Below, one piece after another: positions 33,673 to 35,294 of a DNA stretch of 64,000 nucleotides (positions within the stretch are counted from its first letter, which is position 1; each line of letters starts with the position of its first letter). A model generated the notes under the pieces. The model had not been told where the DNA came from and ran no database searches. It saw only the letters and a program-made list of their open reading frames with translations. Source of the stretch: Rhizophagus irregularis (taxonomy: Eukaryota); assembly GCF_026210795.1 (NCBI RefSeq), contig NC_089432.1, positions 5,518,001 to 5,582,000 on the forward strand, in the 5' to 3' direction. A program made the translations under genes and the position numbers.

Positions 33673-33756
33673 TTACATTATAGAACATTGATTGGTAGGA
33701 TTTATAGGAATAATGACAATTGGTTTGGTAATAACATCGGCATTTTTTGGATTCAT
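33673..33756 (-). CDS. 27-aa CaaX-terminated peptide, copy 1 (candidate a-factor-like lipopeptide pheromone precursor): MNPKNADVITKPIVIIPINPTNQCSIM*
   Basis: Hand translation. A-rich start context (CCTAAAATG), terminal C-S-I-M-stop, frame conserved with copy 2. Confidence 0.7.
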   Translation of the reverse strand: MNPKNADVITKPIVIIPINPTNQCSIM

Positions 33757-35210
33757 TTTAGGTTTTTGTTTAATTAACGTTTTGATTTTGTGTTTGAAAA
33801 ATCCTTTTTTTTTAAAAAAAAAAATTGGTTTAAGTTTCTTATAGTTAATTGTATTTTAATTTCGTTCTTTTGAATCAAATAATTATTTGATGAAAGAAGG
33901 AATCAAGGATTAATCAAAGCATATTTATAACAAATCGTAGCAATAAAGAACTTTATTATTATAATGTTACAATCACATCATCATTATTAAAAAAATTGGC
34001 TGCCTATTCATAACTTTTTTACTATATAGTAATAATTATCCTTTCCCCTGATTCCGATAACCAATTTCGGTAATTGACTTTTCATCATATCTTTTAACAT
34101 AAGTAAATTTAAAATTAAGTTATTAAACAAGAATTTAATAATAGTAATGTCGGTTGATTTACACATTTATCATATTCATTATTAAAATTTAGTAATAGTA
34201 ATGTCGGTATTCAGTTCGAAAATATGTAAAAATTTGAATATTCGAAATTTCGAACATGAATTAAATAACCTAAAATTCCATAGTACGAGATTTAAAATAG
34301 GATAGTTTAATTCTTTTAATAGATATACATTATCTATGTTGCGTAAATGATTTTTATAACGTAACACTTGTTAATGACGTTAATGACTATGCAATATTTG
34401 GAGAATATTCAAAGATCGGAATTCAAATCTTTTTTTTAAAAAAGATTGTGTTACCAAAAATAAAAATTTGTTAACATATTGCGCTTCTCATATTATATCG
34501 ATAAACTTTATTTTTGTAAATTAGATAAATTAGATTGAATTTATTTTGTTTTTGTAATTTTTTTTAAAAAAAATTCAAAGTAATTAAAAATAATAAATAT
34601 ATTATCATTGAATTTTTTTTAAAAAAAATATTATCTAAAATATTCTTTAAAATGAATGAAAGTGATGATCAGATTTTGCATAGTCATAAGCAATGGTGTT
34701 ACGTTACAAAAGTCACTACTCAATACAAATATGTATATTATCACCTGGCTACTAAGTGGTATTTAGGATTTTTTCCCGCAGGTTATAAACTTAGTATATC
34801 TGGGAAGATAAAAAGTTATTGTTTAGTATATAAATGGGTTATCATCCGAAATAACTAATAAACTAGACTATTTTAACCAATCATACTAAGGTTTAATTCA
34901 TGTTTGAAATTTCGAATATTCAAATGTTTATACCGACATTACTATTACTAAATTTTATAAATATGATAAATGTGTAAATCAACTGACATTACTATTATTA
35001 AATTCTTGTTTAATAACTTAATTTTTATATCGAAAGATACGAAGAAAGTCAATTACCGAAATTTGATGTATTATCTTATCAGAACTTAGGGGAAAGGATA
35101 ATCCTTGATTCCATCTTTCATCAAAACAACTGTTTCAAAAGAACGAAATTAAAAAAAGAAAAGGATTTTTCAGACAAAAACCAAAACGTTAATTTAAAAA
35201 AAATCTAAAA

Positions 35211-35294
35211 ATGAATCCAAAAAACGCCGATGTTATTACCAAACCAGTCGTCATTATTCCTATTAATCCTACCAATCAATGTTCTATAATGTAA
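35211..35294 (+). CDS. 27-aa CaaX-terminated peptide, copy 2: MNPKNADVITKPVVIIPINPTNQCSIM*
   Basis: Hand translation. Start context CTAAAAATG. Differs from copy 1 at 4 nt: two synonymous, and two in one codon giving V/I. No indels. Confidence 0.7.
   Translation: MNPKNADVITKPVVIIPINPTNQCSIM

Follow-up and report, generated by a model that had tools for sequence, protein, structure and literature searches.

The window (the whole 64,000-nt stretch of Rhizophagus irregularis DNA analysed here) contains two divergently oriented open reading frames (ORFs) of 84 nt, each encoding a peptide of 27 amino acids with a C-terminal CaaX box (CSIM) directly followed by the stop codon (Table 1). The left ORF translates into MNPKNADVITKPIVIIPINPTNQCSIM and the right ORF into the same sequence except for Val at position 13. 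Both peptides are devoid of a signal peptide and are made up of a polar N-terminus, a hydrophobic core and the terminal CSIM. No ATG precedes that of the left ORF within the RNA-covered span, and an A stands at -3; the frame of the right ORF is closed some way upstream. Both translations, with their coordinates and strands, agree with the first-pass annotation, in which the pair was put forward as candidate a-factor-like lipopeptide pheromone precursors of an arbuscular mycorrhizal (AM) type fungus.

Table 1. Coordinates of the ORF pair, the RNA contigs and the surrounding features in the window.
Feature	Position	Strand	Remarks
Left ORF	33673..33756	(-)	27 aa, P0001, Ile13, CSIM-stop end
Right ORF	35211..35294	(+)	27 aa, P0002, Val13, CSIM-stop end
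Second short ORF	33571..33648	(-)	25 aa, same frame, after the stop; copy past 35294 (+)
Candidate intron, GT..AG	33635..33676	(-)	42 nt; its splicing would take out the stop in frame; unspliced in all bridging contigs
RNA-covered span	33383..33783	(-), inferred from the ORF	ORF with at least 27 nt 5' of the ATG and ~290 nt past the stop
Contig of run X15	33383-33767		poly(A) library
Contig of run X16	33475-33783		
Contig of run X19	33588-33731		
Contig of run X20	33463-33613		
Left arm of inverted duplication	~32771-34265		holds the left gene
Right arm of inverted duplication	~34892-36420		holds the right gene
23-nt element, two copies	34132..34208	(-)	376-452 nt upstream of the left ATG
23-nt element, two copies	34932..35004	(+)	207-279 nt upstream of the right ATG
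Direct repeat	36790-36917		upstream of the predicted secreted-peptide gene
Predicted secreted-peptide gene	37045-37335	(+)	three exons, 1.75 kb past the right CaaX copy
Zinc-finger frame	46512-47561		C2H2 type
Acidic-repeat frame	48265-50796	(+)	843 aa
Kinase + Sel1-repeat gene model	4700-6925		
Kinase + Sel1-repeat gene model	23394-26732		

The pair is part of an inverted duplication of approximately 1.5 kb and occupies the centre-facing ends of its arms. The two ORFs differ at 4 of 84 nucleotides and by no indels: codons 5 and 18 carry synonymous changes and codon 13 carries two changes which exchange Ile for Val, a conservative substitution and the single amino-acid difference between the copies. 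This count matches the initial description of two synonymous changes and one Val/Ile codon. Three of the four changes are synonymous (pS 0.17, pN 0.016, pN/pS 0.09), a bias that reaches P 0.036 (0.046-0.057 with transition weighting) on four changes only and would lend weak to moderate support to selection on the peptide. The same description set the indel-free frames against flanks rich in indels, and this holds upstream and far downstream of the ORFs. On the 3' side the argument fails, since the 111 nt past the stop show 2 differences and 0 indels and are therefore more conserved than the ORF itself; in the first 255 nt 3' of the stop there is one indel between the copies. As the last ten codons of the ORF and the start of the 3' region form a tract of 87 nt that is identical in both copies, the conservation of the 3' end of the ORF may reflect gene conversion instead of selection on CSIM.

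Both copies appear to be real DNA: 14 of 24 sequencing runs, belonging to five studies (one of the 14 may be the window's own source), contain 0.79-0.89 of the sampled words of 33400-35600, a share which requires words specific to each arm. Runs X21-X24 contain none of these words, and this is not regarded as a strain-specific absence because X23 derives from the same sample as a run that contains the stretch. Upstream of the ORFs, a 23-nt element has four matches in the window, all of them inside the duplication arms, and is a candidate regulatory or promoter site. A promoter scan with Ste12-type, TR-box and Prf1-type consensus sequences gave a single Ste12-type match (at 35131, against 0.45 expected), which is not taken as evidence of a mating-related motif, and no TR-box or Prf1-type core.

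Contigs from four of the six RNA runs that contain part of the stretch were aligned to 33000-34500 (X17 and X18 were left out). In all four runs, each from a different study, contigs match the left gene exactly, without gaps or deviating letters, so that the transcription called for by the first-pass annotation is observed for this copy; the runs were picked because they contain the stretch, and their contigs reveal nothing of the strand or the expression level and miss rare variants. Root and rhizosphere samples are the source of the RNA. The bins 33816-34427 serve as a silent control, being without cover in every aligned run, which argues against carry-over of DNA. At 80% likeness no contig of the right copy was detected in the four aligned runs, whose contigs on the gene all carry left-copy letters. 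Six short unrelated pieces of 22-51 nt from X15 and X19 aligned elsewhere on the stretch and were set aside. A hydrophobic antisense ORF of 43 aa starting at 33713 (+) was discarded, given that its counterpart in the right copy is 21 aa long and that the RNA cover ends before its stop.

The window has a GC content of about 25% and includes frames with kinase, Sel1, F-box, P450 and ML domains, a combination typical of Glomeraceae. The zinc-finger frame has no near-identical match; its best ones, proteins from Funneliformis geosporum (60% identity) and F. mosseae (49%), exceed all others by a wide margin, which supports the AM-type lineage proposed at the outset. The two gene models that join a kinase to Sel1 repeats are of a kind expanded in Glomeraceae. 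Directly after the zinc-finger frame lies an open frame of 843 aa with an internal array of acidic repeats of ~23-25 aa, a zinc-finger-like end and no Pfam family at E 0.001. Beyond the right arm of the duplication, a three-exon gene is predicted to encode a secreted peptide of ~40 aa, with a signal-peptide-like first exon, a middle exon of 18 nt, consistent phases, no KR site and two GT..AG introns (85 and 83 nt) which resemble each other as duplicates would; its last exon ends in a W-C-x3-C-P-W pattern which recalls the alpha-type pheromones of filamentous ascomycetes. Upstream of this gene there is a short direct repeat (~60 nt in two pieces, 92-97% alike, spacing 69-73 nt).

In yeasts, a-factor genes have been sought with a sieve that asks for a short ORF ending in CaaX and stop, an Asn located 5-20 residues before the Cys and the presence of near-identical copies; as reported, it found the true pheromone of Yarrowia, and each yeast genome still had 100-700 candidates prior to copy filtering and curation (10.1101/2021.09.28.462209). 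The ORF pair passes this sieve, being short, with a CaaX-stop end, Asn 19 and 5 residues before the Cys (a weak criterion in a peptide that contains four Asn) and a near-identical copy. The Saccharomycotina precursors described in that source (MFA1/MFA2 of S. cerevisiae, MFA1-4 of Yarrowia lipolytica) resemble the pair in their very short ORF, lack of a signal peptide, CaaX-stop end, Asn spacing, near-identical copies with mostly synonymous differences and omission from annotation (10.1101/2021.09.28.462209). The pair differs from them in that it lies outside Dikarya and shows no detectable sequence similarity, in that its amino-acid change falls inside the longer of the predicted mature peptides and not in the leader, and in the very short leader before Asn5. 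For the lipopeptide pheromones of basidiomycetes and the a-factors of filamentous ascomycetes, the C-terminal CaaX is described as the only strictly conserved feature (PMC10569646, PMC6339444), and the pair has it in common with them; a Leotiomycete a-factor candidate is reported to be expressed regardless of mating type (PMC10569646). Unlike these lipopeptides, the pair has no Ser/Thr-rich N-terminus and no Gly-Tyr motif. Basidiomycete pheromone genes cluster with their receptors, whereas no Ste3 gene was detected in the window: the 75 frames of at least 72 aa gave no match to STE3, an ABC transporter or a homeodomain. Judged from these motifs, the peptides resemble a-factor precursors on every feature testable at this level, a likeness that falls short of established membership of the family.

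Rhizophagus irregularis is also credited with candidate peptide signals of another type, the alpha-factor-like KEPs (KEX2-processed repeat proteins), which are described as having a signal peptide and KR-separated repeats and as using the secretory pathway (PMC6339444). The pair ends in CaaX instead and was rejected as a KEP or alpha-type precursor, as it has no N-terminal hydrophobic stretch, no dibasic site and no repeats.

The receptor and the exporter that such a signal would require have been reported in the lineage: a 2013 survey describes one STE3 and one STE6 orthologue in Rhizophagus and Glomus, records no a-factor-like gene among its results, and names short length as the likely reason, its method having also missed the pheromone genes of Ustilago (PMC3834313). 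STE3 is described elsewhere as the single GPCR family with general conservation across fungi (10.1101/546531). The CSIM end is functional in other systems, given that a yeast a-factor ending in CSIM is reported to support mating comparable to the native one and to be cut by Rce1 and not by Ste24 (PMC9231725), and that human farnesyltransferase is reported to modify CSIM fully, geranylgeranyl being accepted as well (PMC11152559). On the combined evidence of the RNA, the retained stop, the function of CSIM in yeast, the lineage and the reported Ste3 and Ste6, the pheromone-precursor proposal of the first-pass annotation gains ground, while it loses the argument from indel-rich flanks on the 3' side. 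We consider it likely, with moderate confidence, that both frames encode an a-factor-type lipopeptide signal which acts on the fungus' own Ste3-type receptor, and the pair is a well-grounded, if unproven, candidate for the ligand that the reported orphan receptor lacks. Points that weigh against this reading are the empty homologue searches, the chance frequency of CaaX ORFs and the many candidates left by the sieve, the conserved 3' region with its identical tract, the absence of right-copy contigs from the aligned runs, the lack of STE3, ABC-transporter or homeodomain matches in the window, the co-inoculation result and the apocarotenoid chemistry of the Mucorales pheromones (see below).

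Among the alternatives, the one that survives best, and yet seems unlikely, is that the peptide is prenylated and has a target other than Ste3, either as a membrane-anchored regulator inside the hypha or as an exported signal addressed to the host plant. A CaaX end, synonymous bias and RNA support a prenylated micropeptide without naming its target, the CaaX end is described as not exclusive to pheromones (PMC10569646) and the root and rhizosphere origin of the RNA is in keeping with this alternative. What favours a ligand of Ste3 over these options is the a-factor layout of the peptide (27 aa, hydrophobic core, Asn at the expected distance, near-identical second copy), together with the report of a receptor and an exporter without a known ligand in the lineage.

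How often such frames arise by chance can be estimated from the window itself, which has 473 ATG-initiated ORFs of 15-60 aa, 10 of them with Cys four residues from the end; only two, namely this pair, conform to a strict CaaX pattern, which was written after CSIM had been seen. In simulated DNA of the same composition there are 0.37 strict-CaaX ORFs per 64 kb, which, for the genome size that we assume, would amount to several hundred chance CaaX ORFs in a genome of this kind. A lone CaaX micro-ORF is commonplace genome-wide, and one that also comes first among the ORFs of a short, discrete RNA is rare: in random 400-nt stretches a CaaX ORF was the first ORF in 3 of 19,974. These figures bear in both directions on a second alternative, which we hold to be less likely than the previous one, in which the RNA is non-coding or functionless, the CaaX frame is accidental and the likeness of the copies results from recent duplication and gene conversion. 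It agrees with the chance expectation per 64 kb, with conservation that peaks after the stop (2/111) and not in the ORF (4/84) and with an indel depletion over the RNA span that is not significant (6 in 401 nt versus 11 in 325 nt outside, P 0.08), and it accounts poorly for the first-ATG position of the frame in a discrete RNA and for the synonymous bias between the copies. A structured non-coding RNA was rejected, as no Rfam family reached the gathering score (one sub-threshold match, 26.9 bits against 40, lies outside the gene) and the stability of the fold is nothing unusual (z-scores -0.59, 0.71 and 0.71).

No homologue was found in any of the collections searched, which also fits a functionless frame. 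Neither of the two peptides was recovered by exact look-up, and word-indexed protein searches retrieved no relative when queried with the ORF extended by the open frame upstream of it (candidates of 23-76 aa). There were 0 hits with phmmer against 1.84 billion representatives, 0 relatives in prokaryote genomes and 0 Pfam families for both peptides; among metagenome contigs, 266 matches to the peptide patterns yielded 0 confirmed cases and the degenerate C-terminal pattern gave 0, and the best value in the ESM Atlas (0.80) is under the useful range. The empty searches show neither novelty nor absence, because 27-aa eukaryotic products are rare in these collections, none of which is a six-frame set of Glomeromycotina assemblies.

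The same RNA can be read in other ways. It is improbable, and somewhat more so than an accidental frame, that the main product is a spliced form of 47 aa without the terminal CaaX, a read-through form or the second ORF of 25 aa, with the CaaX form as an isoform or a by-product. This reading draws on the 42-nt GT..AG stretch that would take out the stop in frame, on the frame remaining open for 33 codons past the CSIM stop (as in 49 of 613 local stretches) and on the composition of the last 64 nt of the 25-aa ORF, after the candidate acceptor, with 39% GC against 16% in the rest of the 3' region, a value reached by 0.7% of 402 local windows. The splice that would have removed the stop, raised as a caveat in the first-pass annotation, is absent from the contigs that bridge it, as these (3/3, from three studies) cross the stretch unspliced, with at least 47 letters on each side and no joints, so that the CSIM end stays in the RNA. 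In addition, the two introns predicted in the neighbouring gene are twice as long as the 42-nt stretch, and the downstream in-frame segment departs from the pattern of the CaaX ORF, with 0 synonymous and 1 non-synonymous change between the copies; nor does this segment have an unusual fold or an Rfam family. Reading the stop as X in a read-through query yielded no protein of 33-107 aa, and the 25-aa ORF has no Pfam match and is absent from the protein collection searched. Splicing may still give rise to a minor isoform that lacks CaaX.

Finally, a proline-bounded precursor of a cyclic peptide (leader up to Pro12, hydrophobic core to Pro17 or Pro20 and a short follower), analogous to the MSDIN precursors of Amanita, has the required hydrophobic stretch between prolines and is very improbable, given a follower of only 7 residues where MSDIN-type followers are much longer, a terminal CSIM that it leaves unexplained, no Pfam match and no prolyl oligopeptidase match among the 75 frames of the window.

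If the pair encodes a-factor-type precursors, the standard route would apply, as suggested by a-factor biology and by the Ste3 and Ste6 reported in the lineage. The 27-codon frame, without a signal peptide, would be translated in the cytosol, and the product would be farnesylated at Cys24 by Ram1/Ram2, freed of its last three residues by Rce1 and methylated by Ste14. Trimming of the N-terminus would most likely take place after Asn5, resulting in a hydrophobic peptide of 19 residues, and less likely after Asn19, resulting in one of 5 residues. The mature peptide would then be exported by the ABC transporter Ste6 and sensed by Ste3 and its MAPK cascade.

With regard to its role, a signal of this type may serve mating or, just as well, hyphal homing, fusion or self-recognition, considering that a single STE3 copy is reported and that the RNA comes from root and rhizosphere. 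In a co-inoculation study no upregulated pheromone genes are reported among the annotated genes (PMC7490403), which, along with the single receptor and the origin of the RNA, indicates that the signal need not be mating-type-specific. Related cases are described in other fungi: in Fusarium, pheromone receptors take part in sensing the host, and for Neurospora it has been suggested that hyphal fusion involves a peptide signal (PMC7411241). More tentatively, and with less than even confidence, the pair can be proposed to encode the native ligand of Ste3 in arbuscular mycorrhizal fungi and the first lipopeptide pheromone outside Dikarya found in our searches, used for the recognition of partner or self before nuclear exchange. 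In the literature outside most subscription journals, no report of an a-factor-type gene in Glomeromycotina was found, the alpha-like KEPs of R. irregularis coming closest (PMC6339444).

Whether and how AM fungi mate is a long-standing open question. The nearest studied relatives, the Mucorales, are described as using trisporic-acid (apocarotenoid) pheromones as their mating signal (PMC3834313), which are neither peptides nor gene-encoded, and a lipopeptide would represent a different chemistry within the same phylum. If the proposal is confirmed, lipopeptide pheromones would extend past Dikarya into a phylum with apocarotenoid pheromones, and a-factor signalling would be placed in the common ancestor of Mucoromycota and Dikarya. 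AM fungi are reported to have no stable transformation (PMC6339444), and for this reason a short peptide that can be synthesised, for direct application or for a receptor test in yeast, offers a direct experiment where few are at hand. If the pair is indeed the ligand of Ste3, such a peptide would make cryptic sex and hyphal fusion in AM symbionts accessible by synthetic means.
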